Assembly (NCBI GenBank): GCA_963810935.1
Contig: CAWEPK010000008.1
Location: forward strand, 576,001-640,000
Length of the DNA stretch: 64,000 nt
Source of the DNA: an uncultured delta proteobacterium
GTDB taxonomy: Bacteria > Desulfobacterota > Syntrophorhabdia > Syntrophorhabdales > WCHB1-27
Reading direction: 5' to 3'
Below the pieces are notes generated by a model. It saw nothing but the letters and a program-made list of their open reading frames with translations, was not told the DNA's origin and made no database searches. Shown here piece after piece: positions 5,135 to 23,208 of the stretch. How positions within the stretch are numbered: position 1 is the stretch's first letter; each line of letters starts with the position of its first letter. The position numbers and the translations under genes were made by a program.

Positions 5135-7084
5135 TCATGTGGCGAGGGATTGCCTTTGCTTCTCGCCGCGCCTTTTCGCTATCTGCATGACGACTACTGC
5201 TCCGAGGATTACACAACCGATGATATCCTGCATCGATCCGGCATAAAACAGCAGCAGGCCGGCGATGCCCAGGGCAATCCGTCCGATTGCGCCGATTTCG
5301 CTAATCAGGTAACCACCCACGCAGCCGGAAAGCGCCCAGACACCCGCAAGGGCCGTCAGGGTGACGACAATTATATTGAGGACGGGGCCTTGAAGCAGAA
5401 GGCCGACGCCATCCGGTGAAGACGCGAACATGAAGGGGACGATGAAGGCAGGCAGCGTATACTTCCAGGCAAGCATCGTCGTCTTGAACGGGTTGCCGCC
5501 TGTAATGGCCGCAGCCGCGAACGGCGAAAGGGCCGTCGGCGGCGACACCTCGGAGAGGACCGCATAATAGAAAATGAACATGTGGGCAGCCGCCTCGGGC
5601 ACGCCGAGCTTTACCAGGGCGGGCGCCGTCATCACTGCGGCAATGATGTATGATGCCGTGATAGGAAGGGCCAGTCCAAGGACAAGAAGGATCAAGGCGG
5701 TGAAGATCAGCGTCATATAGAGGCTGCCGCCTGCTATATCGACGATGATGCCCGAGAACTTGAGTCCTATACCCGTGAGGTTAATGACGCCGACGATGAT
5801 GCCCGCGCATGCGCAGGTAGCCGCAACGCCCAGGACCTGCTTCGTCCCTGCAGCCAGAGCTTCGATCAGCTTACGGGGAAAAAGCGCCGAAACCCTGTTG
5901 AGGAAGCTCGTCGCAATGGCGATCAGGATGCTGTAAAAGACCGCCGTGATCCCGGTGAACCCCAAGGCCATGAATATGACGATAGTGACCAGGGAGGCAA
6001 AGTGAAACCAGTACTGCCTGGTAAGCGCCACGACATCTATCTTTCCCAGGCTCACATGCTTTAGCCCGAAGCGGTGCGAGTCGCCCTGCACCATGAAAAG
6101 GATGGAGGCATAATAGAGGATCGTCGGCACGGACGCCATTATCAGGACCTGGAGGTAGGATATCCTCAATATCTCGGCGATGAGGAACGAGGCCGCGCCG
6201 AGGACCGGCGGCGAGAGTATGGCCCCTATGCCGCCCGCAGCCAGAAGACCCCCGGCCGAGTCCTTGTCGTACCCTGAACGCTTGAGGAGCGGCCAGGCGA
6301 CGGACCCCAGGGTAACGGTAGTGGCAGCCCCGCTGCCCGACACCGTCCCCAGAAGGAACGACGCGAGAGTCACCGCACGGCCCGCCCCCGCACGGCTTTT
6401 ACCCATGCAGCCGAGCGCAAAATCGACGAAGAACTGGCCCGCCCCGGATAGCTCCAGAATGGCCCCGAAAATCGTAAAGAGTATGATAAAAGTCGAAGAG
6501 ACCTCCACCGGCGTGCCGAACAGCCCGTTCAAGGTCATGTACTCAAGGGCCACCATGCGGGTGATCGTATAGCCGCGGTGTCCCCAGGGCTCCGGCAGGA
6601 TACCGCCCCAGTAGGCGTATGCTATGCAGACCAGGACGACGATCGGGAGCGCTATGCCTGTCGCCCTGCGGGTCGCCTCAAGGACAAGGATGCAGGCGAG
6701 CACGCCGAGCGCTACGTCCATCGGCAGGGGGTTCGGGACGCGGTACATGAATGCTTCGAGGTCGAGGAACGGGTAAGCAAACGCTACGAAGACTAAAATG
6801 GCAAGGAAGATATCGACTGCAAGGGCGCGCTGTTTGAGTCCGCGGGAAGGCGGGTAGTAAAGGAAAGTGAGCATCAGGATCAGCATGACGTGCACGTACC
6901 GCACGACCTGCGTGATCATGGAGGCGAATGCACCGTAAAGGGCAAAGAGGGAGCAGAAAACGGCCAGGGCTGTCGCTATGTACCACATCGGCCCCGTGAA
7001 CTTCCGGGTCGGGGCCTCGAACTCCTCAAGTATCTCCTCGGCCTTTTCGGCCGATATGGTCTCCAGCCTGTCCTGCTCCTCCAC
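5135..7084 (-). CDS. TRAP transporter fused 4TM/12TM permease (TAXI type)
   Basis: 649 aa very hydrophobic; motifs LEATRR, GTVSGSG, PPVLGAASF, GLALPITASY, SEVSPP; adjacent to TAXI binding protein. Confidence 0.92.
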   Translation of the reverse strand: MEEQDRLETISAEKAEEILEEFEAPTRKFTGPMWYIATALAVFCSLFALYGAFASMITQVVRYVHVMLILMLTFLYYPPSRGLKQRALAVDIFLAILVFVAFAYPFLDLEAFMYRVPNPLPMDVALGVLACILVLEATRRATGIALPIVVLVCIAYAYWGGILPEPWGHRGYTITRMVALEYMTLNGLFGTPVEVSSTFIILFTIFGAILELSGAGQFFVDFALGCMGKSRAGAGRAVTLASFLLGTVSGSGAATTVTLGSVAWPLLKRSGYDKDSAGGLLAAGGIGAILSPPVLGAASFLIAEILRISYLQVLIMASVPTILYYASILFMVQGDSHRFGLKHVSLGKIDVVALTRQYWFHFASLVTIVIFMALGFTGITAVFYSILIAIATSFLNRVSALFPRKLIEALAAGTKQVLGVAATCACAGIIVGVINLTGIGLKFSGIIVDIAGGSLYMTLIFTALILLVLGLALPITASYIIAAVMTAPALVKLGVPEAAAHMFIFYYAVLSEVSPPTALSPFAAAAITGGNPFKTTMLAWKYTLPAFIVPFMFASSPDGVGLLLQGPVLNIIVVTLTALAGVWALSGCVGGYLISEIGAIGRIALGIAGLLLFYAGSMQDIIGCVILGAVVVMQIAKRRGEKQRQSLAT

Positions 7085-7132
7085 CGCACTTCCTCCCTGA
7101 ATTACCGTAAAACCGGTCTTGCCGTCACTTCG

Positions 7133-8116
7133 CTACTTCCAGGCGCCGTGCTCCTTGTAGTATTTGATCGCGCCCGGATGGAAAGGTATCTCGGCGAGGT
7201 TGGTCGCGGCCTTGAGGTTCAGCTTCATCGCCTCTTTATGGACTGCGACCAGGTCCGCCTTCTTCTCGAAAAGGCTTTTCGTTATTGCATAGACCAGCTT
7301 TTCATCCATCTTATCCATCGTTACGAATATAACGGGCACGGAGATCGTCTTTACATCCGCGTCCTGCCCCCTGTACGTACCCTTCGGTATTACCGCATCG
7401 TAATAGATGCGTCCGTGCTTCTTTACGATGGCAGGGAGATAGGACTGGACGTCCATCAGCTTGTAGCTCAGGCCCGGCGTTGCGCCGAGGTCGAGCATGG
7501 AAGCCGCAGGCAAGCCCGTAGCGAAGAAGAAGCCGTCTATCTTTCTATCTTTGAAAGCGTTTGCAGACTCGCTCAGGCTTATGCGCTCCCGCTTGAAGTC
7601 CTTGACAGGGTTGATGCCGGCTGCCTCCAGGAGCTTTCCGGCGACCATCTCGTGGCCGCTGCCCGGCGCGCTCGTCGAGATGCGTTTCCCCTTCATATCC
7701 TCAAGCTTGTTGATCCCCGGCACCACGACCACGTGGGCGATATCCGGATAGAGGACCGCTATGGCCCGCACGTTCACCTTGCCCGTGCTCGCGTAATATC
7801 CCACCCCTTTAATCGCTTCCGATGCGGCGTCGCTCTTCGTGAACGCGAAATCGAGGGAGTTGTTCTGCAGCATCTTAATGTTATCGACGGCCCCCGGCGT
7901 GACCTCGGCCGTTGCCTGAGTACCCGGGACATTTGCCGACATCACCTTGGCGATGGCGCCACCGTAGATGTAATAAACACCGCCGACGTCTGCGGTCCCT
8001 ATCGATACCCTCCGGACCTGGGCCTCCGAGGAGGCGCAGGTCATAAGGATGGCCGCGAGGGCAACCAACGTGGCGACGACCGCTGTAATCCCGCACCTGC
8101 TCGTTGTTCTTCTCAT
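7133..8116 (-). CDS. TAXI family TRAP solute-binding protein
   Basis: Signal peptide; SIGTADVGGVYYIYGGAIA, TPGAVDN, PFHPGA motifs. Confidence 0.93.
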   Translation of the reverse strand: MRRTTSRCGITAVVATLVALAAILMTCASSEAQVRRVSIGTADVGGVYYIYGGAIAKVMSANVPGTQATAEVTPGAVDNIKMLQNNSLDFAFTKSDAASEAIKGVGYYASTGKVNVRAIAVLYPDIAHVVVVPGINKLEDMKGKRISTSAPGSGHEMVAGKLLEAAGINPVKDFKRERISLSESANAFKDRKIDGFFFATGLPAASMLDLGATPGLSYKLMDVQSYLPAIVKKHGRIYYDAVIPKGTYRGQDADVKTISVPVIFVTMDKMDEKLVYAITKSLFEKKADLVAVHKEAMKLNLKAATNLAEIPFHPGAIKYYKEHGAWK

Positions 8117-8140
8117 ACTACGTACCTCCTCGATAAATGG

Positions 8141-9782
8141 TTATCCACGCGCGTTCTGCACTATCTCGACGCCGGGCGAGCCGTCCGGCCGCCGTGAAAC
8201 GACGATCCTTTTTTTCCAGTCCGGGTCTGTTGCCGGAAAATCCTCCCGGTGGTGCGTTCCCCTGCTCTCTTCGCGCGCCAATGCGGCACTCGCAATGAGC
8301 GAGCCCGTAACGAGCCGGCTCTGAAGGACAGCGCTGCCGCCTTTCCCGGCACTCTGGATCGCATCGAGGACTTCCTTGAGTCCCTTCGCGGACCTTATTA
8401 TAGTCATGTTCGAGTAATAAAGGGCGGCCATCCGGTCCATCAGCTTCTTGTCCGCATCGGAAAGCGGCGTGATGCCGGGGTCCGCGAGCCGGGGTTGCCT
8501 GCCCGCCTTTCCTGCTTCGGCCGCCTGTCCTGCCGCCGCGCGTCCCGCCCGGTACCCGAAGACCTGCGTATCTATAAGATTGTTTCCCCCCGGCCTGTCC
8601 GACCCGTGCACGCCCCCGGACGCCTCGCCGGCGGCGTATAAGCCCTCTACGCCGGTGAAGCCGTCCGCGTCTATCAATATGCCGCCGTTGAAGTTCTGGA
8701 CGACAAGGCCGACCTCCAACCGATGGCGGGCCAGGTCTATCCCTGCGCCGAGCAGGGCCTTGTAGGTCACGGGCGCCTTGCTCATGAGCGTTTCCCGGCC
8801 GACGTGGGTCACGTCGAACCAGACGGCCCCCGACGGAGTCCCCCTGCCCTCCATGACTTCCCTGAAGACGGCGATGTCGAGGTACTTCGCATCCGTCCTC
8901 ACGGAAAACGGGTAGGACATGGCCTTCAGGTCGAGCACCGCGTCGGGGCTGACTCCGGCCGGGCAGTAACGGGAGAGGAACTCTTCGCCCTGCGTATTCG
9001 TCAGGCGCGGACGCAGCCTCCACATATGGCTGTGGATAATGAACGTAATGGGCGTGTTGAAGACCGCCGGGCCCACCTGGAAAAACTCAAGGTTGACCAG
9101 GCGCGCTCCCGCCCTGTATGCCATCGACCATCCGTCCCCCTCGACAGTCGGGGGGTTGACGTTGTGACTGAAGATCCTGCCTGCGCCCCCGCTTGCCAGA
9201 ACGGCTGACCGGCTCTTTATGAAGAAGGTTTCACCGTCCGCGAGGCCGACTGCGCCGCAGACCCTTTTCTCATCGTCCTGCACGAGGTCGAGGACACGGC
9301 TGCCTTCCATCACACGGACGCCTCAGCTGCCCGATCCGCCCTTTAAGTGCGCGGACCATTTCCTTTCCCGTCGAGCCTCCGCAGGTCAGGGAACGCGCCT
9401 TCGTGCATCCCGATAGCTTCCGCTGCACTATGCGCCCGCCGTCTGCGTCGAACGCGACTCCCATCTCCATAAGCTCGCTTACGCGGTCGCACGCCTCGTC
9501 TGCGATTATCCTTGCCAGCGCAGGGTCGCCTAGGCCGCCGCCCGTCTCGATTATGTCGCGGTAAAAGACATCCGGGTCGTCCCCATCGCCTTCGAAGTTG
9601 AAGGGGGCGTTGATGCCGAGGCTTTCGGAGGCGATGAGGTTCGTGCTCCCGCTCGACCCGAAACCGCCCGCCACGACCAGGAGCACATCGAGGCCGGGGT
9701 ACGCCCGCTTCGCCTCGTATGCGGCCCTGCTTCCCGCAGCGCCGCCTCCTATGACAAGGACATCACAGCCAAGCTCTCTCAT
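8141..9782 (-). pseudogene. FAD-dependent oxidoreductase, NadB/SdhA superfamily; split by one extra base near 9323 (possibly a sequencing error)
   Basis: ORF 9270..9782 (DVLVIGGGAAG) and ORF 8141..9313 (LASGG, GLYAAGE, HGSDRPGGNNL, REESRGTHHREDFP) join into 546 aa if T9323 is removed (..QL-GVRVMEG..). Confidence 0.85.
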
Positions 9783-9808
9783 CTCCCGCGACCCCCTCGA
9801 AGATGCGT

Positions 9809-10483
9809 CTATTTTTCTTTAAGCCCCTTGGCCTCCAGGCTCTTGTTGAAACCGTAAAGCTCCAGGGTCGTTTCGCCTTTCTTCAGCTTCTCCATGATGA
9901 TCTTTTCTTTTTCCACCCTGGCCTTGCACGCCGCCAGGACCGTCGCTATCTCCTCACGGGCCACTATGACGACGCCGTCCGCGTCACCGAAAACGAGGTC
10001 GCCCGGATTCACCGTGATTCCCCCTATGAATATCGGATAGTTGATGAGGCCCAGCGAGTCCTTTGTAGTCCCTTTGATGCACAGCGACCGCGTGAACATA
10101 GGAAAGCCCATGTCGATGATGGCGCGCGAGTCGCGTACGGAGCCGTCCATAACCATCCCGGCGATGCCCCTTACCTGGGCAGCAAAGGTCATCACCTCGC
10201 CCCAGGGCCCCGCCTCCGTGTAGCTGCCTGTCGTTATCACCAGCACGTCGCCCGGTCCCGCGACGTAGATGGCCTTGTGGAACATCAGGTTGTCGCCGGG
10301 GCGGCACTTCACCGTTACCGCCGGGCCGCATAACCGGCTCGAAGGGTCGATGGGCTTGATCTCACTCGATAAGGCGCCCTTGCCGCCCGATGCCTCGTGT
10401 ATAGTAGCGCTGTCTAAATCCGCGAAGCCCTTAATCAGCTCCTGAGGCGGACGGACAATTTCATTGATTACATGAGGCTCCAT
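9809..10483 (-). CDS. RraA/HMG-CHA aldolase family protein, LigK/GalC-like
   Basis: TIHEA, CGPAVTV, PGDNLMFH, WGE-X20-RD, GDADGVV motifs. Confidence 0.88.
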   Translation of the reverse strand: MEPHVINEIVRPPQELIKGFADLDSATIHEASGGKGALSSEIKPIDPSSRLCGPAVTVKCRPGDNLMFHKAIYVAGPGDVLVITTGSYTEAGPWGEVMTFAAQVRGIAGMVMDGSVRDSRAIIDMGFPMFTRSLCIKGTTKDSLGLINYPIFIGGITVNPGDLVFGDADGVVIVAREEIATVLAACKARVEKEKIIMEKLKKGETTLELYGFNKSLEAKGLKEK

Positions 10484-10495
10484 GTTACCTCCGTT

Positions 10496-11938
10496 TCATT
10501 GGGCTACCACGATGCCGAGGCGGCCTGCCGCTTCTATCGCGGCCTCCAGGCTCGGCTCCGCGTCTACGATGGCGAGGCGCCCCCCGCCCCTGTTGCGGGA
10601 ATCGACCATCGCACTCCCTTCTGCAGTCTCGATCCTGATGCGCTGGACCTCAGGCTCTTTGACCTCGACGAGCTCGATGGGTATCTTGCGGCTAAGGACG
10701 TCGGCGACGACCTTGCGGTAGCTTTCGATATCGTCTGTGGCCGATCCGTAAACTGCGCCCATCAGTATGCCTGGGACGTTGATGGCCCGGCGCGAGAAGA
10801 GGTCGGAGGTCAGCTCGATGCGGATGCGCACGGGCTCTCCGCCGGCAAGCTCGTGGCAGATGCGCCCCATGTTCGTCGGCGATCCCACCGCCATGCTGCT
10901 GCCGCCGAAGACCACGTCGCCCAGCGAGTGCCTGATGGAAGGCGACTGGGCCGCGAGGCTGCGCACCTCCTCCCTCGCTTGCCGGAGCACCTCCTCTTTC
11001 TCGGCCGCCTCCTTCGCCAGCACTTCAGGGCTGACGAACTTTTCCACGTTCTCGTCGCGCTCGAAAAATGGGCGCAGGTACCGGATATTGATCGGTGTGA
11101 TTACAGGCGCCGCCTCTCTGTGTATCCTGGCAGCCATCGCCACCATCGCGTCCACGTCGACCGGCATGGGCAGGGATGTCTTCAGCACGAGGTTTGCCGC
11201 CTGGTTGCCTATAAGGATCGCAGCGCTTATATGGAGCGCGCAGAGCCCCGGCACCATCACGCGGGGCGTGCAGGGGACTGCAATCGTGGGCGATAGGGCA
11301 AGCACCAATGCCTTGCCGACCTGGGTGGGGCTCCCGCCCCTAAGCTCCGTGAGGACGGCGGCCGTTACCGCGGCGCCCGCTCCGATGCCTTCCATATTGC
11401 AGCCCGTCGTTGCCTTGCCCGCGCGGAAAATGCCACCGATCTTCAGCATGAGGGCGGTCGCGTGGGCGATCTGCCCGGCCGGGTAAGGTTTTTCTTTGAG
11501 TGCCCTCAAGAGGCCCGTATAAGGGCACGAATCGCCCGTGCCTGCGCAGGGCCGCAGTCCTATTTCATGGTTTCCCACCTCTGTCGCAAGGGTATAGGTT
11601 AGGGCCCGGTTGATGAAATCGTCCTCGATCTGGGCGGGACCGTTCTTATTCTCCCGGTTCAGGTCGGACGCAACGCTGCCCAAAAGGAAGCTCTTGCCTT
11701 CGGTGAGGCCAAGCTCGCACGCGCTTAAGTTGTGGCGGAAGGCCCCGGTCACCTCCGCGAGAAGCTCCTCGTAGCCCATCTTCTCCTGCGCCATCGCCTG
11801 GGCGACGACCAACGCAGAAAGCGGAGCGCCCTGCCTTTCAGCCATCTCGATCAGCTCCGTGAGCGTGTAAGGCTTGGCCGGGTCAGCGGCAAAGCCGCCG
11901 ACGAGCCTTTCCGTAATCTCTTTGAGTGTATCTGTCAT
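10496..11938 (-). CDS. Fe-S L-serine dehydratase-like protein, alpha-beta fusion
   Basis: RPCAGTGD, GCNMEG and VPCTP...GLC resemble SdaA alpha-subunit motifs; C-terminal LGDVVFGGSS...SRNRGGG resembles the beta subunit. Confidence 0.72.
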   Translation of the reverse strand: MTDTLKEITERLVGGFAADPAKPYTLTELIEMAERQGAPLSALVVAQAMAQEKMGYEELLAEVTGAFRHNLSACELGLTEGKSFLLGSVASDLNRENKNGPAQIEDDFINRALTYTLATEVGNHEIGLRPCAGTGDSCPYTGLLRALKEKPYPAGQIAHATALMLKIGGIFRAGKATTGCNMEGIGAGAAVTAAVLTELRGGSPTQVGKALVLALSPTIAVPCTPRVMVPGLCALHISAAILIGNQAANLVLKTSLPMPVDVDAMVAMAARIHREAAPVITPINIRYLRPFFERDENVEKFVSPEVLAKEAAEKEEVLRQAREEVRSLAAQSPSIRHSLGDVVFGGSSMAVGSPTNMGRICHELAGGEPVRIRIELTSDLFSRRAINVPGILMGAVYGSATDDIESYRKVVADVLSRKIPIELVEVKEPEVQRIRIETAEGSAMVDSRNRGGGRLAIVDAEPSLEAAIEAAGRLGIVVAQ

Positions 11939-11962
11939 TCGAGCCTCAAGCGGAACACCCGC

Positions 11963-12628
11963 CTACCTCTTCGACTGCAAGGAGTGGTATCCGAATTTCT
12001 GTCTAGCCTCTTTAAGCGAGAGCCCGCCCCTGACCGCTTTCTCGATCCTGTTTTCCGCCTTCTCGATATCGAGGGCGAGCTTCAGGACCTCCTCGGCCCT
12101 CTCGTGGGGGACGACCACCACCCCCGTGTCGTCGCCCACCATTATATCGCCCGGCTTTACCTGGGTCTTTCCTATCGAGACGGTCACGTTCATCGCCTCG
12201 ACCATCACCCGGTCCTTGCCGGTCATCATGAACCTCCCACGTGTGAATATGGGGTACTTCTCTTTTATTATGTACGGCACGTCGCGGCAGACGCCGTCGA
12301 TGACCGTCCCGGCGATCCCTTTTTGCTTCGCCACCATCGTAAGGATATCGCCCCAGACCGTGCAATCCGTCCGTCCGTAATTGTCCAGGACGATGACGTC
12401 TCCCGGCTCGACTATGTCTATATAATCGCCGACTGTCCCCTTGACCTGCCCGATAGGCACGTACCGTATGGTGAAGGCGGGGCCTGCCATCTTCGCTCCC
12501 TGCACTACGGGCAGTATCCCTTCGCAGCCGCCCCTGAGACCGAACGCGTCGAGGGCATCCGAGATGGCGGCGGTGGGAAGGGAGACGAAACCTTTTACGA
12601 TTTTTTTGGCCGGCCGTGGAATCTCCAT
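11963..12628 (-). CDS. RraA/HMG aldolase family protein
   Basis: ISDALD, AGPAFT, WGD-X20-RD, GDDTGVVVVP. Confidence 0.88.
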   Translation of the reverse strand: MEIPRPAKKIVKGFVSLPTAAISDALDAFGLRGGCEGILPVVQGAKMAGPAFTIRYVPIGQVKGTVGDYIDIVEPGDVIVLDNYGRTDCTVWGDILTMVAKQKGIAGTVIDGVCRDVPYIIKEKYPIFTRGRFMMTGKDRVMVEAMNVTVSIGKTQVKPGDIMVGDDTGVVVVPHERAEEVLKLALDIEKAENRIEKAVRGGLSLKEARQKFGYHSLQSKR

Positions 12629-12637
12629 CTGCTCCTC

Positions 12638-13309
12638 CTATTTCTTCAGCATCTGCTCGTAGTTATACTTGCTGTCGACCTCCAGGATGTCCATGCCCGC
12701 AAGTATGTCGGCCTTCATCGCTTCCTCCTTCCGGAGGATATCTTCGGCGGCAGAGACGACTTCCTCGAGCTTCTCCGGGGGGATGACGACCATTCCGTTC
12801 ACGTCCGCAACGATGATATCGCCCGGGCGCACCTGGACGTCGCCCAGGCGTATGGGGCAGTTGAAGTCCTCCTGCATGATCCTGCCGCGCGCGGTTATCG
12901 GCACTACGCCGCGCGCGAATACAGGGAACCCTATCTCCTGGCAGAAGTCGATATCCCTCGCTGCGCCATCGACGACTACGCCGGAGACGCCCCGTTTCTG
13001 CGCTGCGCAGGAGAGGATCTCCCCCCAGCAGTTGTTGTATAGATCGCCCCTGTTGTCGATGGCGATGATGTCGCCCGGCGATGCGGACGCAATGGCGTCG
13101 ATCCCTAGGTGGCGCTTTGATTTCACCATGCCCGCCGCCGTCATTTTGATCGTGGCCGCCAGCCCGGCGATCTTCGGCATGCCGAAGAGTGGACGGATGC
13201 CGATTACGGCGCCGCGCAGCCCGGTCGCGTCGAGCGCATCCGCCAGGTTTGTCGTCGAAAGCCTCTCCAGCCGCCCTCGGTAGGCAGCGTCGAACGCCTC
13301 TGCATTCAT
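12638..13309 (-). CDS. RraA/HMG aldolase family protein
   Basis: LADALD, WGE-X20-RD, PGDIIVADVNGMVVIP; start chosen at ATG 13309 after a G-rich RBS. Confidence 0.88.
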   Translation of the reverse strand: MNAEAFDAAYRGRLERLSTTNLADALDATGLRGAVIGIRPLFGMPKIAGLAATIKMTAAGMVKSKRHLGIDAIASASPGDIIAIDNRGDLYNNCWGEILSCAAQKRGVSGVVVDGAARDIDFCQEIGFPVFARGVVPITARGRIMQEDFNCPIRLGDVQVRPGDIIVADVNGMVVIPPEKLEEVVSAAEDILRKEEAMKADILAGMDILEVDSKYNYEQMLKK

Positions 13310-13326
13310 CTCGGTCGCCCCCCTTC

Positions 13327-14518
13327 TCACTTATAGACTAACCGCGGCGCATAGGTCGGGCAGACCTCCGTGCACATGCCGCAGACATCACACGCCTTCG
13401 CGTCGATCACCGCACCCGCCTTGGTCACGGTGATGGCGTCGTAAAAACAGACTCCGCAGGCAGACGCCGCATTTGGTGCATTTGGCCGTATCGATCACCA
13501 CGGCTACATTCTGGGGCTTTCTCGGGACTTCGGCGGTCTTGACCATGTTGGGCAGGGCGATGCCCCTTATGTCCTTCAGGCTTTTATATCCCTTAGCCTC
13601 CATCCAGGCGGACATGGAGTCCTGCCATCTCTGGGACACCTTGTAGCCCTGCATCATGATGCCGACGCCCGATTGCACGAGGGTGGCGCCGACCATCAGG
13701 TAGCGCACCACGTCCTGCCATTCCCAGGTGCCGAGGCCCGCGATAATGGGTATTTTCAGTTCCTTAGCCGCCTGGCCTACCAGCTTCAGTCCGTAGCCCA
13801 CGAGGTAGGGTCCGCCGTAACCACCGATTGCGCCGAACGGGTAAGGCTTCGCGGTTTCGATGTCGAGCGTGATGCCGGAAAGCCGGGCGGACATGTTGAC
13901 CGCATTGGCGCCTGCCTCCTCGACCTGCTTCGCTATGATAACGGGGTCGTTCGTCTGAGGTGTGATCTTCACGCTGAAGGGCTTCTTTAAGACCTCTTTG
14001 CATGCCTTGACGAACTGGTAGGTGAGATCGACTGCGCCCGCCCCCATCTTGATGCCCATGTCTGCGGCAAAGGGACAGGAGTTGTTCAGCTCGACCCAGT
14101 CCGCCTTCGTCTTGTTGACGAGGGTGCACATCTCGATCCATTCGTCCATGCTGGAACCGGACAGGCTGGCGATGACAACGCCCGTATCGCCGACCAGGTC
14201 TTTTGCCTTGTCGATGTCCTTCATGTACGTCGGGTAATCGTAGGCCGAGCATTCCTCAAGTGAGCGAAGGGTGAAGGCGTGGGGCAGCTTGTCGGGATAT
14301 CCCGGATATTCCCTGTAGTCTATCAGCTTGAACCTCGGCCTCGGGAACTCGCGGCCCAGCTTTCCGCCTTCGCCGAAAAGAGACTTGGCGATGACGGCGC
14401 CGGCGCCTCCTTCAATGCCCTTTTTCATCGCCTTTGCGTTCATCGTGGGCGTCGCCGAGCCGACGACGATGGGGTTCTTGAACCGAACTCCTGCTATCTC
14501 AGTCGAAAGGTCGACCAT
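13327..14518 (-). pseudogene. dihydroorotate/dihydropyrimidine dehydrogenase (PyrD/PreA)-like FMN protein with C-terminal 2x[4Fe-4S]; one extra base near 13453 (possibly a sequencing error)
   Basis: KNPIVVGS, IAKS, ELNNSCP, VKITP, GGYGGP; CTKCGVC then, after removing one base, CFYDAI...CDVCGMCTEVCP and stop at 13327. Confidence 0.85.
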
Positions 14519-14534
14519 GTTATAAACTCCTCCT

Positions 14535-15281
14535 TTACCGTTTTTTTCGAGTATCTTTACGGGACTCCCGCAATGGTAACTCTTTATCCTGAAGCGCCGT
14601 CTGGATCTGGCCTATATGCTCGAGCATTATGTCTCTGGCGTCCTCCGAATTGCGCTCCGATATGACCTTGAAGAGCTTATCGTGGTAGTCGAGCGTTCTC
14701 TGCACGGGCTTTTCGGTGAGGACGATGGCGGACGAGACGTTATTCTCCATTATGTCCAGCATCGAATCGATCATGAAGAAGATCACCGGGTTCTCCGACG
14801 CCTGCGAGATGATCCGGTGAAACTCAAGATTAAGGAGCCTCGCGTCGGTCGGGTTCTTCTTTTTGAGGCACTCCCTCGTCTCCTCTATGTTCTGCTTCAA
14901 CTGCGCGAGCGCCTCATCCTTTATCCGCATGGCCGCCAGGGCCACTGAGAACGGCTCTATGGCGAGCCTCGCCTCGGTGAGGTCGGCGATCTTGATATTG
15001 CCGAGAGAAAACATGTCCTGGAGGAAGTTGTTGCCCGTCTTGACGCTGGGATCGACGAGAAAGGCGCCGCCCTGCATGCCCCTTCTAATCTCAAGAATGC
15101 CCGTATATTCGAGCTTCTTGAGCGCCTCCCGCACGGTGACACGGCTGCACTGGAACTGCTCCATTAGCTGCCGCTCGGACGGCAGCTTCTCACCCGGCGT
15201 GATCTTCTTCTGAAAGATCGCCTGCTTTATCTGCTCGATTATCGCCTCAGAAATCCTGTCTGTCCTGACTGATTTAAACAT
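14535..15281 (-). CDS. GntR/FadR family transcriptional regulator
   Basis: GEKLPSERQL...SRVTVREAL HTH plus FCD domain (EARLAIE, EFHRII, ASENP). Confidence 0.93.
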   Translation of the reverse strand: MFKSVRTDRISEAIIEQIKQAIFQKKITPGEKLPSERQLMEQFQCSRVTVREALKKLEYTGILEIRRGMQGGAFLVDPSVKTGNNFLQDMFSLGNIKIADLTEARLAIEPFSVALAAMRIKDEALAQLKQNIEETRECLKKKNPTDARLLNLEFHRIISQASENPVIFFMIDSMLDIMENNVSSAIVLTEKPVQRTLDYHDKLFKVISERNSEDARDIMLEHIGQIQTALQDKELPLRESRKDTRKKR

Positions 15282-15305: not shown

Positions 15306-15344
15306 TCATATACATCATACATCCAAATGTTAGTCCTTTGTCAA
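15306..15344 (-). promoter_or_regulatory. putative promoter/operator of the FadR operon
   Basis: Minus strand TTGACA followed by TGTATGATGTATATGAT (repeated TATGAT); -35/-10 spacing is non-ideal (19 nt). Confidence 0.35.
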
Positions 15345-19392: not shown

Positions 19393-20697
19393 TCATATCT
19401 CGTCGTGGTCGATCAACTGGATCGCGACCTTTTCTCCGGCCCTTATCTTCGTGCTGCTTTCCGGGATCACTATCAGGCAGTTCGCCTTGCTCATCGAGCG
19501 AAGCTCGGACGATTTCTGGTTCCCCGTCGTCGAGACGTAGAACTCGTCGTTCCTTATGGTGAAGCGGCCCCGGAGAAGGTTGACCGCGCCGGAGCGCTTG
19601 CTCACGTCTTCTTCCAGGAACGCACTGACTACCGGCTTGTTTAACTTTTTAGCGCCCATCAGCTTGAGCAGGGCGGGCCTTACGAACTCGATGAACGACG
19701 TAAGGGTCGGGACCGGGTAGCCAGGCAGGCCGAAAACAAGCTTGCTGCCCTTTTTCCCGAAGGTGCATGGTTTGCCCGGCTTGACGTTGATCCATTCGAA
19801 AAGTATCTCGATGCCCAGCTCGGAATAGACCTCTTTGATAAAATCATACTTCCCCATCGATACCCCGCCCGTCGATATCACAACATCGGCTTCGAGGGCT
19901 TCGAGGAGCTTCACCTTCGTCTTCTCCTTCGTATCCTTGGCTATGCCGAGGTAATGAGGGATGGCGTTGTACTTACGCACCTCCGAGTAAAGCATGTAAG
20001 CGTTGACGTTCCTGATTTGGCCGATCCCTATCTTCTCGCCCACCTCGGCCAGCTCGTCTCCGGTGGAAATGATCGAGACGTCCGGCCGCTTGTATACCCT
20101 GACGGTGTCATAGCCCAGCGACGCAAGGATGCCCACGTCAGCGGACCTGAGCCGGTCTCCCTTCTGGAGCACCTTATCGCCTTTCTTTATATTCTCTCCA
20201 GCGCGCTTGCAGTTACTGTCCTCGACCGCTTCGCTGAAGATGCTTACGTAACCTTCTTTTTCTTTCGTATTCTCGAAGGGGACAACGGAATCGGCCCCCT
20301 GCGGTATCGGGGCGCCGGTCATGATCCTTACGGCGCCGCCGCTTTCCACTTTTATTCCGGCGGCTGAAGCCCCGGCCCGCAACTCCCCGGTGACCTTAAG
20401 CCTCACGGGTTTGCTCTTCGACGCGCCGCGCGTCCCGGCAGCGATCAGTGCGTAGCCGTCCATCGCCGAATCGTCGAAGGGCGGTATCATGATATCGGAT
20501 ACGATGTCTTCGCGGAGGATGCGGTTGAACGACTCCACGACGGGGATCGTCTCGCCGCCGAGGGGTTTCACGGCATTCAGGATAATCCGCTGCGCTTCCG
20601 CAACGGAGACAGCCGCACTCCCGTTTTCACCGTGACGCGTTTTGCGCGAGCGGAAGATACCCGTTTCGCGCACGCTTGCTTTATGTTGTGACTGCAC
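19393..20697 (-). CDS. moeA: molybdo/tungstopterin metal insertase MoeA
   Basis: PPFDDSAMDGYA, IMTGAPIP, STGDEL, TGGVSMGKYD, KPGKP, GLPG motifs. Confidence 0.95.
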   Translation of the reverse strand: MQSQHKASVRETGIFRSRKTRHGENGSAAVSVAEAQRIILNAVKPLGGETIPVVESFNRILREDIVSDIMIPPFDDSAMDGYALIAAGTRGASKSKPVRLKVTGELRAGASAAGIKVESGGAVRIMTGAPIPQGADSVVPFENTKEKEGYVSIFSEAVEDSNCKRAGENIKKGDKVLQKGDRLRSADVGILASLGYDTVRVYKRPDVSIISTGDELAEVGEKIGIGQIRNVNAYMLYSEVRKYNAIPHYLGIAKDTKEKTKVKLLEALEADVVISTGGVSMGKYDFIKEVYSELGIEILFEWINVKPGKPCTFGKKGSKLVFGLPGYPVPTLTSFIEFVRPALLKLMGAKKLNKPVVSAFLEEDVSKRSGAVNLLRGRFTIRNDEFYVSTTGNQKSSELRSMSKANCLIVIPESSTKIRAGEKVAIQLIDHDEI

Positions 20698-20706
20698 GTG
20701 CCTGCC

Positions 20707-21252
20707 CTAATTCTCTCCCTTGGCCGCAATACGCGAGACGGTATCGACGACCGTCTGCAAACCGTATTTATCGACCATGGAGCCCAGGCCCGCCTCGACC
20801 TGCTCTATCTCCACCTGCTCGTCAATTTCCTCTTCACGCTCTTCGTAAGTGAGGACGTTGCTAAGGCAGACCTGTACGCACATCGGCTTTTCCAGCGGCG
20901 GGTCGCTCTCGCACAGATCGCACTTGAGCGGCAGGCCGGAGTCCGGCTCCTTAAAAAGGTCCCTGGAAGGACATGAGGCCCTGCAGAAGCCGCATTCGTC
21001 ATATTCTTTGCCGTCGATAATATACTTGTCCCTGCCCATGCACTCGGCAGGCGTATATTCGCCGGCAAAGACGGGCAGCCATATATTCTTCACCCTGTGG
21101 GTGATGATCTGGATGCGCGACCGCGCAGGGTTGTTGCTGCTGTACTGCGGGTTCGCGTGGAATGCGGAGCAGACGATCTCACACCCGCGGCAGCCGTTGC
21201 ACTTGTCGGCATCGACCTTGATTGTCTTGACGATTTTCTTAATCTTTGCCAT
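20707..21252 (-). CDS. bamC: class II benzoyl-CoA reductase Fe-S subunit BamC
   Basis: DADKCNGCRGCEIVCSAFHA..SSNNPARSR, GKEYDECGFCRASCPSRDLFKEPDSGLPLKCDLC closely match my recollection of Geobacter BamC; overlaps the end of bamB. Confidence 0.85.
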   Translation of the reverse strand: MAKIKKIVKTIKVDADKCNGCRGCEIVCSAFHANPQYSSNNPARSRIQIITHRVKNIWLPVFAGEYTPAECMGRDKYIIDGKEYDECGFCRASCPSRDLFKEPDSGLPLKCDLCESDPPLEKPMCVQVCLSNVLTYEEREEEIDEQVEIEQVEAGLGSMVDKYGLQTVVDTVSRIAAKGEN

Positions 21253-23208
21253 TGTTCAATATCCCTCTCTTTTCTAGGTCTTCAGCGACATAAGTCAAGT
21301 CGAGCTCCTCCAGCCTTTCCCTGGTGGGAACGCCGTCCATATTCCAGCCCTTGTACGTATAGTACGTGGACAGGAGATCTTCCTCGAGCTCCGGGACCCT
21401 CTTCTTCCAGTGGTCCTTCGGCGGTTTCTCGTCGGCCCTTCTCATGCCCCGCCTGTTGTTGAACGCCCTGTGGAGGTTCCGGCTCCTGTTGACTATCTTC
21501 TTGAGCCCCGCTTCGTCTACGTCCATCCCGGTAGCCGCAGATATCAGCTTCGGGTAGTTGTGGATATGATACGGGGGCTTGAGACAGAACGACGACATGC
21601 CCGCGCAGACGCAGCAGGCGTCGTCGATGTTATGCAGCATCTCCATCCAGTCCACGATCTCGGCGCACATGTTCGGCGTCGGGAAGTTAGGTATCGCTTT
21701 CTCCCCGCGGATATCCCAGTCGAGGAGGTACTGCTTGAAATGCTCGTCGGGAAGCTGCGGCCAGTCTTTAACGAAGGCTTCCCTCTGCTCCATCGTCGGG
21801 AAGGCAGATTGCGGCCACTGTCCCTCGATCTGCGTGATGCTGATCTTCTCGTTCGTCGAGTACATAAGAAAATAAAGGGGATCGAGCATGCCCAGCTTGA
21901 GTGGCAACTGCTCGTGCCGCTTGATGGTGTTGTGGTCGAATTCCTCAGCCCCGTTGCCGATGGCCCGCGCGGCGTAATAAACGCCGTCCGCGAGGACGTC
22001 CCCGATCCCTTCCCTGCGGGCGATCCTGTCGAGGAGCCAGAAGAACCTCCCCTCCTTGTCGGCGGGACATCCATCGAAGTCCTTGTCGGTGAGGATGCCG
22101 GCATCGTACAGCTCGACGGCGAAGGCCATGATCTGCGGAGTGGAGAAAGAGTCGAACCCGTACTCCGTGGCTTTTTGCAGGATCCTGAAGTTGAAGCCCA
22201 GGTCGTCTACCATTGCCCCCATGCAGTATGTGAGCTTGCCGAAGCATTTCATCATGTAATAGGGGGATTCCTGGTAGGAGACAAGGGCCCCGCAGTGCTG
22301 CGGGCAGTTGAAACAGCTTATCAGCCGCTTTACCGCCTCGTGCTGCGCCGCGATCCAGTTCGTCTCGTTTTCCTTACTCCAGAAGTCTCTTCTTCTGGTG
22401 CGGGCATTACCCCACATAAAGTTTTCCGTATGCCACTTTTCATCGGTGTGGACCATCTCCTGGGGCGACCCGATGCCCGAGAGGATCGTCATGACGTCCG
22501 GGATAGGGTTCGCGTTCCGGTAATTTATATATTCCGTCACGCCCTTCATGAGCTCCATGAATTCTGCGCCCCTGGCGAGGTTGACGTCCTTCGTCCCCCG
22601 GACGGCCACGGCCTTGACCTTCTTGTCCCCCAGGACTGCACCGCCGCCGAGCCTCGATGCGCTAGACCGGGACTGCTCGATGGAGGCCGTGAAGCACCTG
22701 TTCTCGCCGGCCAGGCCGATAGCGGCCACCTGTATCCTGTGGTCACCCAATTCTGCCCTGATAAGGTCCTGCGTCTCGACGGCGCCCCTGCCCTTCAGGT
22801 GCGTGGCGTCGCGGAGCTCCACCTTGTCGTTGTTTATCCATATGTAGACCCAGTCCGGCGATTTGTTGCGCAGGACGACTTTATCCCAGCCTGCATATTT
22901 CAGCTCGGCCGAGAAAAACCGCCCATCATCGGATAGGCCAGCAGGTGCGATTGCGGGGAAACAAAGGTGACGACCGTCCGGTTCGCGCTGAAAGCAGGTG
23001 TCGCGTTGAACAAGCCGGAGTCGATTATCAGCATATTATCGTCGTCGAACGGACCGACTTCAGGCCCGACCCTGTCCCAGTGCATCTTGACGCTCGTGCC
23101 CAGCCCCCCAAGGTGGGTTTCCATCATCTTCGGGTCCGTTTCCACCCGCTCGATGTTCCCCGACGCCAGGTCGATTTCCAAGTTGTAGCCCGTTTCGGCG
23201 TATCTCAT
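21239..23208 (-). pseudogene. bamB: tungsten class II benzoyl-CoA reductase catalytic subunit BamB (AOR family); one base missing in A5 run 22914-22918 (possibly a sequencing error)
   Basis: MRYAETGY start, GSPQEM..DEKWHTENF, ISCFNCPQHC, YMMKCF, ITQIEGQ, KPPYHIHNYP match recalled BamB; adding one base gives MMGGFFSAELKYAG and a 656 aa frame. Confidence 0.87.

Follow-up and report, generated by a model that had tools for sequence, protein, structure and literature searches.

A Conserved Anaerobic Catabolic Gene Cluster That May Convert Furan-2,4-dicarboxylate to Pyruvate

Introduction

In the nicotinate fermentation of Eubacterium barkeri, the serine-dehydratase-like protein Hmd is said, from the work of Alhapel in 2006, to turn 2-(hydroxymethyl)glutarate into 2-methyleneglutarate. 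The upper steps of the nicotinate route, and only those, are confirmed in the excerpts of a further paper (PMC9304392; papers given by PMC number are cited here and below for excerpts of their text). In lignin-biphenyl catabolism, LigY releases 4-carboxy-2-hydroxypentadienoate (CHPD; PMC6874591), and a proposed route leads from CHPD through HMG (4-hydroxy-4-methyl-2-oxoglutarate) to two pyruvates, the CHPD hydratase being listed in the excerpt as not identified in Sphingobium SYK-6 (PMC12673573). The HMG/CHA aldolases (CHA, 4-carboxy-4-hydroxy-2-oxoadipate) cleave both HMG and CHA, and in the Pseudomonas putida enzyme the substitutions N71A and K147A each lower kcat approximately 1000-fold (PMC5065237). 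The known furan pathway needs oxygen, and a 2018 review expects anaerobic alternatives (PMC6604932). Here, we describe a conserved anaerobic catabolic cluster, assembled from known enzyme families, in 64,000 nucleotides of an uncultured delta proteobacterium (assembly GCA_963810935.1, contig CAWEPK010000008.1, positions 576,001 to 640,000; the window). It is predicted to form pyruvate through CHPD and HMG, and furan-2,4-dicarboxylate is our best reading of the entry compound, with a probability of roughly 0.4.

Organization and Conservation of the Cluster

The nine genes form a minus-strand run that fills 5135-15281 in the order FadR, PreA-like, RraA1, RraA2, SdaA-like (here Hmd-like), RraA3, flavin adenine dinucleotide (FAD) protein, TAXI and fused TRAP (Table 1). 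The intergenic gaps are, in this order, 16, 17 (with the PreA end corrected), 9, 24, 12, 26, 24 and 48 nt; the order and tight, co-oriented packing given by an earlier reading of the letters alone (the sequence-only reading) are therefore confirmed, with gaps of 9-48 nt. Co-occurrence was assessed in two sets, one of genome loci with the SdaA-like gene as anchor (the best 80 of 183) and one of metagenome loci, mostly short, with the PreA-like gene as anchor (the best 80 of 103); kin and near-duplicate contigs inflate the locus counts. The six enzyme genes stand together within 10 kb, in shuffled order, in 11/80 genome loci, and within 10 kb in five of the 80 metagenome loci. Thus, the genes do co-occur in other genomes, those of further bacteria that avoid oxygen, and the co-occurrence of the six enzyme genes is not chance. 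The PreA-like gene is present in 12/80 genome loci, and the FAD protein gene lies alongside it in all 12; among the 31 metagenome loci of at least 9 kb, the FAD gene is found in 27, RraA1 in 24, and an Hmd-like or AcnX gene in 24. These associations, together with the enzyme families, support the catabolic combination of redox, Fe-S (de)hydration and retro-aldol steps that the sequence-only reading had put forward. The TAXI-TRAP importer, which it had counted in the set, is interchangeable: a TAXI protein of at least 60% identity occurs in only 4/80 genome loci, and other loci carry Liv-, NMT1-, DctP-, Tct- or MFS-type transporters. The nearest loci bear deltaproteobacterial labels. As the PreA-like profile matched none of 400 genomes drawn from the phylum and the SdaA-like gene is present in 6 of 41 relatives, the distribution of the cluster is patchy. 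We found neither this gene set nor an anaerobic breakdown of 2,4-furandicarboxylate described in the literature searched, which excluded most subscription papers.

Table 1. Features of the cluster in the window, in order of transcription
Feature	Position	Strand	Length (aa)	Basis
TTGACA box followed by GGACTAACAT motif, upstream of fadR	15325..15344	-		pattern match
FadR-subfamily GntR regulator	14535..15281	-	248	Pfam GntR + FCD above cut-off
PreA-like flavin mononucleotide (FMN) enzyme, C-terminal 2x[4Fe-4S]	13327..14518	-	396 (without insertion at 13451)	profile + motifs
RraA1, RraA-fold metal/enolate enzyme	12638..13309	-	223	Pfam RraA-like; own clade
RraA2, RraA-fold partner of RraA1	11963..12628	-	221	Pfam RraA-like; own clade
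Hmd-like Fe-S hydro-lyase, serine-dehydratase fold, alpha-then-beta order	10496..11938	-	480	Pfam SDH_alpha
RraA3, HMG/CHA aldolase	9809..10483	-	224	NCBIfam PRK09262, 219 bits (cut-off 179)
Stand-alone SdhA/NadB/TfrA-family FAD protein	8141..9782	-	546 (without insertion at 9324)	Pfam FAD_binding_2 + Succ_DH_flav_C
TAXI solute-binding protein	7133..8116	-	327	TIGR02122, 271 bits (cut-off 84)
Fused TRAP (DctQM) permease	5135..7084	-	649	TIGR02123, 510 bits (cut-off 321)

The Dehydratase and Nicotinate Fermentation

The SdaA-like protein is not an Fe-S L-serine dehydratase by family score (NCBIfam sda_alpha, 31 bits against a cut-off of 243). It combines the serine-dehydratase fold (model pLDDT 84; top fold match the L-serine dehydratase 4RQO) with conserved Fe-S cysteines and kinship to proteins of nicotinate clusters, being 46-55% identical to 32 such homologues, which supports its placement in the Hmd family; 100 alignment positions are at least 95% conserved, including C131, C138, C180, C223 and C233. 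The protein has no solved relative by sequence and no plasmid match, and its family holds at least 1150 relatives. Rather than being an orphan, it is kin to the nicotinate-cluster dehydratase, and the Fe-S (de)hydration proposed by the sequence-only reading stands. Ring opening or elimination of water is its predicted step in the cluster.

Approximately 30 of the 80 genome loci, mostly from Bacillota, combine the dehydratase with XDH-like, Fer4-flavoprotein, amidohydrolase, Hgd-like, B12 mutase, GlmL, PrpF, LeuCD and ICL-family lyase genes. We take these to be the E. barkeri-type nicotinate cluster, and the name Hmd rests on this gene context. The mutase occurs in 26/80 loci and RraA1 in 33/80, and no locus has both. 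A genome search covering 48 genomes with non-nicotinate loci and, as controls, 2 of the 32 nicotinate-type genomes found the mutase in 0/48 and 2/2, and RraA1 in 38/48 and 0/2, respectively. Enamidase is encoded in 10/48 of the non-nicotinate genomes, several with Ndh- and Hnr-like genes; within the family it is no commoner with the cluster (3/6 genomes) than without it (8/16). A tblastn search of the window's own genome (93% complete) gave no match for Ena, Hnr, Mgm, MgmL, Mii or Dml, and none of these lies in the cluster. Because mutase and RraA1 share no locus, enamidase does not track the cluster and the own genome gave no match for these pathway genes, nicotinate fermentation was rejected as the function of the cluster.

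Hmd homologues and nicotinate-type genes also appear in other settings (labels beginning with L and G are ours, for loci and genomes). RraA-linked gut homologues of Hmd nest on the nicotinate side of a quick tree. Four betaproteobacterial loci (L026, L031, L035 and L054) place an Hmd homologue with cupin, PrpD, AcnA, LeuCD and TctC genes, without mutase or RraA1; one of them adds a PrpB-like lyase. The four loci are a further setting of the Hmd family. In deltaproteobacterial loci L094-L100, Ndh-, Ena-, Hnr- and ApbE-like genes are common without Hgd, Hmd or mutase nearby, so that 2-formylglutarate would be handled there by another route. Elsewhere in the own genome, XDH-like subunits adjoin an Hgd-like dehydrogenase and a FadR gene, without enamidase or Hnr (G000:C8:287930-293347; L197).

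The Aldolase and Its Two Divergent Paralogues

The three RraA-fold proteins form three separate clades in a tree of 173 sequences. RraA3 exceeds the HMG/CHA-aldolase cut-off, scores 192 bits against 304.5 for the narrower TIGR02798, has 3NOJ as its top PDB match, and contains the equivalents of N71, H75, R123, D124, G144, T145, K147, R195 and E199. RraA1 and RraA2 score 98 bits each against the cut-off of 179. Both keep metal/enolate residues, with the equivalents of G101, R123, D124 and E199; N71 is missing from both (the alignment is gapped near it), T145 is replaced by R in RraA1 and K in RraA2, K147 by R, and R195 mostly by I. Since these four residues are not kept, RraA1 and RraA2 are probably not standard aldolases, and the three aldolases of the sequence-only reading reduce to one with the full residue set. 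The predicted roles are those of a dienol tautomerase or hydratase for RraA1 and a hydratase or tautomerase for RraA2, whose closest solved sequence is the uncharacterised 3K4I.

Cleavage of HMG by RraA3 is quite probably the last step of the pathway. The nicotinate-cluster dehydratase and HMG aldolase both act on a 2-methylglutarate skeleton, which suggests a single skeleton here. Hmd-type chemistry acting on the 2-oxo analogue should give 4-methylene-2-oxoglutarate, whose dienol is CHPD, and this convergence is the main argument for a lower route from CHPD through HMG to two pyruvates, which we hold to be reasonably probable. Oxaloacetate, named beforehand as a possible product, is not favored, as the kinship to Hmd indicates a C6 skeleton with a hydroxymethyl/methylene branch and, as products, two pyruvates.

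Orthologues of RraA1 and RraA2 also occur as a pair on aerobic plasmids, where four of 144 matching records were opened. In all four, the pair follows a LigJ/LigY-family amidohydrolase and RidA; the dioxygenase beside it is extradiol in two records and ring-hydroxylating in two, and the extradiol enzyme matched no NCBIfam family at 1e-20 (LigZ-, DesZ- or other type). The amidohydrolase is automatically named 4-oxalomesaconate hydratase, and LigY presumably belongs to the same family. Plasmids of Bradyrhizobium, Novosphingobium (pNL1) and Sphingobium carry the amidohydrolase, RidA, RraA1 and RraA2 after a dioxygenase (L188-L191), and the Bradyrhizobium module adds two P450s, an acyl-CoA synthetase and a Liv-type ABC transporter; the module is a candidate for a lower pathway, not yet described, by which cultured aerobes would handle ring-fission dienols. 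A link to peanut 4-methyleneglutamine, considered from the Bradyrhizobium plasmid matches, was dropped because the pairs sit in an aromatic ring-fission module.

Gut loci labeled Bacillota or Actinomycetota (L048, L053, L065, L068-L070, L072 and L105) carry RraA1, RraA2, a D-2-hydroxyacid dehydrogenase, RraA3 and Hmd under LysR, together with a carboxylesterase and citrate-type transporters, and have no PreA or FAD gene. A 389-aa neighbor in one of them (L065:5731-6897) has no Pfam match.

The Proposed Route and Its Entry Compound

Furan-2,4-dicarboxylate would be taken up by the TAXI-TRAP system under FadR control. The PreA-like FMN/Fe-S enzyme, predicted to be the ring reductase, would deliver a hydride to C5 and a cysteine proton to C4, with dihydropyrimidine dehydrogenase (DPD) acting on uracil as the model, giving a 4,5-dihydrofuran; the FAD protein would be its redox partner, as an electron relay or second reductase. 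The Hmd-like Fe-S lyase, by analogy with Hmd and its 2-(hydroxymethyl)glutarate, would eliminate the oxygen beta to the C4 carboxylate, either opening the ring or dehydrating its hydrolysed form, to yield CHPD, the dienol of 4-methylene-2-oxoglutarate. Through the metal-bound enolate at C3, RraA1 and RraA2 would tautomerise CHPD and add water to give HMG, from which RraA3 would form two pyruvates. We infer each reaction from the proteins of the cluster; the computed mass balance closes (C6H4O5 + 2[H] + H2O = 2 pyruvate). The 2-oxo group of HMG could not be made from 2-methyleneglutarate by these enzymes and should therefore be latent in the substrate, and opening of the ring by elimination is in keeping with a core that has no lactonase or amidase. 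Both features are accommodated by a five-membered ring bearing carboxylates at positions 2 and 4. The heterocyclic dicarboxylate suggested by the sequence-only reading survives in this form.

Residues of the PreA-like enzyme were compared with pig DPD through an orthologue (L009). C671, N668 and E611 are kept, and N609 is changed to S, L608 to R, N736 to A and T737 to R; the motifs are common to 14/14 rows, the N736 site being A, or F in one. The Ser, Ala and two Arg that stand in for the other uracil contacts of DPD are as expected for a ring with carboxylates. The protein lacks the uracil-binding Asn/Thr set of DPD PreA and scores 184.7 bits against the NCBIfam PreA cut-off of 335, this score being that of the frameshift-truncated open reading frame (ORF). 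No PreT was found in a search confined to the recurrent neighbors.

The FAD protein has the SdhA/NadB fold, and the ESM Atlas and a fold search returned only generic SdhA/NadB relatives. Every NCBIfam score for NadB, SdhA, FrdA and TfrA is below cut-off, as scored on two ORF halves. At the dicarboxylate site, where most residues are lost, the His of QFHPT is Gly, TE is HS and the His of HYTCGG is Gln, with only the Arg of GANR kept, and invariant SGC, IIH and PFSxRT motifs are gained. Altered substrate motifs with retained cofactor motifs, claimed beforehand for both flavoproteins and the dehydratase, thus hold for the PreA-like and FAD proteins, and NadB-type C-N oxidation is disfavored by the residue changes. 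The gut-type clusters without PreA-like and FAD genes carry a D-2-hydroxyacid dehydrogenase instead (7/80 loci). Possible tasks for the FAD protein are electron relay to the PreA ferredoxin domain, reduction of another double bond and oxidation of a 2-hydroxy acid; its step is the least constrained of the route.

Sister Clusters and Sources of the Substrate

In sister clusters, aconitase X (AcnX), an unrelated Fe-S hydro-lyase, takes the place of Hmd: among the 80 PreA-like-anchored loci, Hmd occurs in 20, AcnX in 13 and both in none, and genome G491 provides a further case. The AcnX family is described in published abstracts as a second Fe-S hydro-lyase family that includes cis-3-hydroxyproline dehydratase; O- and N-heterocycles could not be told apart by AcnX residues. 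G491 belongs to the same taxonomic order as the Moorellaceae locus L059, and its AcnX-type cluster (C67; L204-L205) has a creatininase-family hydrolase and a PreA-like gene in two copies; named Moorella species encode the linked UbiD type. Beside GntR and a TRAP system, the own genome has an unlinked pair of AcnX large and swivel genes (to the cluster type, 41% and 39%; G000:C17:208553-210225).

Two UbiD lineages are found in the clusters, in 7/80 genome and 14/80 metagenome loci; the same loci hold two further rows, which represent other kinds of UbiD. The closest solved relative of the linked UbiDs is 6H6V (E values of 1e-104 and 4e-80, against 2e-59 and 6e-52 for the next family), which is HmfF, furan-2,5-dicarboxylate decarboxylase (PMC8988006). 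The R304 and R331 equivalents of 6H6V are kept in 22/22 linked rows (one a duplicate), with His (17), Gln (4) or Asn (1) at the His296 position; the five unlinked UbiDs of the own genome are without the R304 equivalent. The furan idea had been formulated before the UbiD searches.

The fullest operon (L104+L030; also L186) adds an aldehyde oxidoreductase (AOR), an iron-containing alcohol dehydrogenase (Fe-ADH), a class III aminotransferase, UbiX and a sodium symporter. AOR, Fe-ADH and the aminotransferase would oxidise CH2OH, CHO and CH2NH2 side chains, which is suggestive only. The furan of methanofuran carries hydroxymethyl- and aminomethyl-type side chains. In one locus (L117:4485-6253), a corrinoid protein and a methyltransferase-like gene, recognized by eye and without an NCBIfam match, lie upstream of the PreA-like gene with two Fe-ADHs; this pair could cleave an ether-linked precursor. 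Methanofuran contains a 2,4-substituted furan (PMC6604932). As a tentative extension, which we consider rather doubtful, furan-2,4-dicarboxylate would arise by oxidation of the methanogen cofactor methanofuran or UbiD carboxylation of furoate, dearomatisation by a repurposed pyrimidine reductase would proceed without CoA, and RraA1 and RraA2 would be a new class of RraA-fold tautomerase/hydratase that includes the sought CHPD hydratase.

Weighing the Entry Compound

Several points weigh against furan-2,4-dicarboxylate. We know of no precedent for the reduction of an aromatic furan by an FMN enzyme. The nicotinate-type and RraA-type Hmd proteins differ consistently at seven positions, so that their substrates may be less alike than we assume. 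The scheme leaves the FAD protein without a necessary role, yet no gene accompanies the PreA-like gene more faithfully. The window cluster itself is without UbiD, AOR or ADH; in the linked loci, the nearest UbiD match is weak evidence because few UbiD structures exist, and the name 'furandicarboxylate decarboxylase' is automatic. Some loci carry an aminotransferase, an M20 deacylase, a creatininase-family hydrolase (G491), an opine dehydrogenase or a glycine-oxidase-like gene. HmfF also accepts pyrrole-2-carboxylate (PMC8252502, PMC6644310). Finally, the automatic name of the aerobic amidohydrolase would point to a C7 skeleton.

The main rival is a pyrrole or amino-acid entry to the same CHPD/HMG lower route, from pyrrole-2,4-dicarboxylate, 4-carboxyproline, a dihydroxynicotinate lactam or 4-methylene/4-hydroxymethyl-glutamate, with the FAD protein acting on a C-N bond. 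TAXI proteins often bind glutamate-like acids, aminotransferase, deacylase, creatininase-family and amino-acid ABC genes occur in some loci, and the pyrrole tolerance of HmfF and the cis-3-hydroxyproline dehydratase within the AcnX family would also fit. However, Hmd and AcnX are both hydro-lyases, an aminotransferase occurs in only 2/80 loci of each set, the amino-binding Glu of NadB is Leu in the FAD protein, and the Asn that in DPD serves the ring N-H is lost from the PreA-like enzyme. We consider this entry unlikely, if worth keeping in view.

Another ring or acid might be reduced instead, such as a 4-pyrone carboxylate (chelidonate or comanate) or furan-2,5-dicarboxylate, with the RraA paralogues as aldolases or decarboxylases for several products. 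The PreA-like site, with N668 kept, T737 exchanged for R and N736 lost, would also suit 4-pyrone-2-carboxylate, and the linked UbiDs are nearest to the 2,5-dicarboxylate enzyme. This is decidedly unlikely: the fumarylpyruvate or 2-hydroxy-5-oxoadipate formed would call for FAH-type hydrolases, and no beta-hydroxymethyl acid would be offered to Hmd or AcnX.

In much the same range of improbability lies a C7 tricarboxylate skeleton, as in the gallate/protocatechuate route through 4-oxalomesaconate (OMA) and CHA to pyruvate and oxaloacetate, with RraA1 and RraA2 replacing LigU, LigJ and LigK functions. RraA3 is among the aldolases that cleave both HMG and CHA (PMC5065237), and besides the automatic name of the aerobic amidohydrolase, Tct transporters, PrpD and aconitases stand beside some Hmd homologues. 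The close kinship to the C6 nicotinate dehydratase would be left unexplained, and the 2-pyrone-4,6-dicarboxylate/OMA route, which relies on a lactonase but on no reductase, does not match a core with two redox enzymes and without lactonase.

A lower branch of nicotinate fermentation that does without B12, from 2-(hydroxymethyl)glutarate to pyruvate, is very improbable, as the Hmd homology and the enamidase genes of some genomes with non-nicotinate loci are set against the own-genome and family-level counts given above, and HMG formation from 2-methyleneglutarate would need an alpha-oxygenation for which no gene is present.

Gene Integrity, Regulation and Neighboring Genes

Two apparent frameshifts, absent from the sequence-only reading, affect the cluster. 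As assembled, the FAD gene is read as two ORFs (170 and 390 aa), and the PreA-like ORF is without its second ferredoxin motif. Over the region 8100-14600, all four short-read runs, from one soil study, have one base fewer at 9324 and at 13451, and relatives have undivided ORFs of approximately 545 aa (FAD protein) and 396 aa (PreA-like). Therefore, both frameshifts are assembly insertions, a pseudogene reading was rejected, and the two genes are intact.

The regulator has the GntR helix-turn-helix and FCD domain of the FadR subfamily and attains no NCBIfam equivalog cut-off. The site upstream of it is likely a promoter plus FadR operator: the TTGACA-GGACTAACAT pattern, built from the window and five loci, matches 21 of 161 loci scanned, 16 of them outside the building set, and one site in the own genome. 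The importer has the TAXI binding protein and fused 4TM/12TM permease of TAXI-TRAP systems.

Outside the cluster, genes for MoeA, a ferredoxin-like product and an AOR-family protein lie at window positions 19393-22822 (minus strand); the ORF of the AOR-family protein begins within the N-terminal domain (Pfam AFOR_N 125-199 only), possibly through a third assembly indel. At 1829-2470, also on the minus strand, a secreted Ser/Thr/Asn-rich protein without a Pfam match has at its end a VPLPA motif, followed by a hydrophobic stretch and a basic tail, which we take to resemble PEP-CTERM/VPLPA-CTERM sorting signals.

Implications

If the proposed route is true, the cluster would be an anaerobic counterpart to the oxygen-needing furan pathway, with a gene set and named intermediates that can be tested. 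At least 1150 proteins called 'serine dehydratase' would gain a function outside nicotinate fermentation, and RraA-fold hydratases or tautomerases would fill the step listed as not identified in lignin-biphenyl catabolism. Were methanofuran the source, a cofactor-recycling loop would be closed in methanogenic habitats.

Comparison with Known Systems

The cluster shares an Hmd-type Fe-S dehydratase with the nicotinate fermentation of E. barkeri. It differs in the absence of mutase, Mii, Dml, enamidase and Hnr, in the presence of three RraA-fold and two other redox enzymes, and in the predicted products, two pyruvates instead of pyruvate and propionate. With the 5,5'-dehydrodivanillate branch of lignin-biphenyl catabolism (LigZ/LigY, then CHPD, HMG and two pyruvates; PMC6874591, PMC12673573), the last two steps are predicted to be identical, and an HMG aldolase is present in both; CHPD would be reached here by anaerobic reduction and Fe-S elimination, whereas a dioxygenase and a hydrolase supply it there. 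The excerpts give the hydratase of that branch as 'not identified' for SYK-6 and propose UxuA for Paenibacillus; here, RraA1 and RraA2 are the candidates.

RraA3 resembles the HMG/CHA aldolase LigK/GalC (PDB 3NOJ; PMC5065237) in scoring above the family cut-off and keeping the tested residues; unlike that system, the cluster has no LigI, LigU, LigJ or dioxygenase context and contains two extra divergent paralogues. Some loci share HmfF-like UbiD/UbiX and aldehyde- or alcohol-oxidising enzymes with aerobic furan catabolism by HmfABCDE and HmfF/G (PMC6604932, PMC6644310). In contrast to that pathway, as excerpted, the core is without furoyl-CoA ligase or Mo hydroxylase and is predicted to lead reductively to pyruvate, not to 2-oxoglutarate. 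The two flavoproteins share folds and cofactor motifs with PreTA and with L-aspartate oxidase and fumarate reductase, including the catalytic Cys in PreA and, in the FAD protein, one Arg of the site; their substrate-binding residues are replaced, and the recurrent neighbors of the core include no PreT, hydantoinase, NadA or SdhBC.

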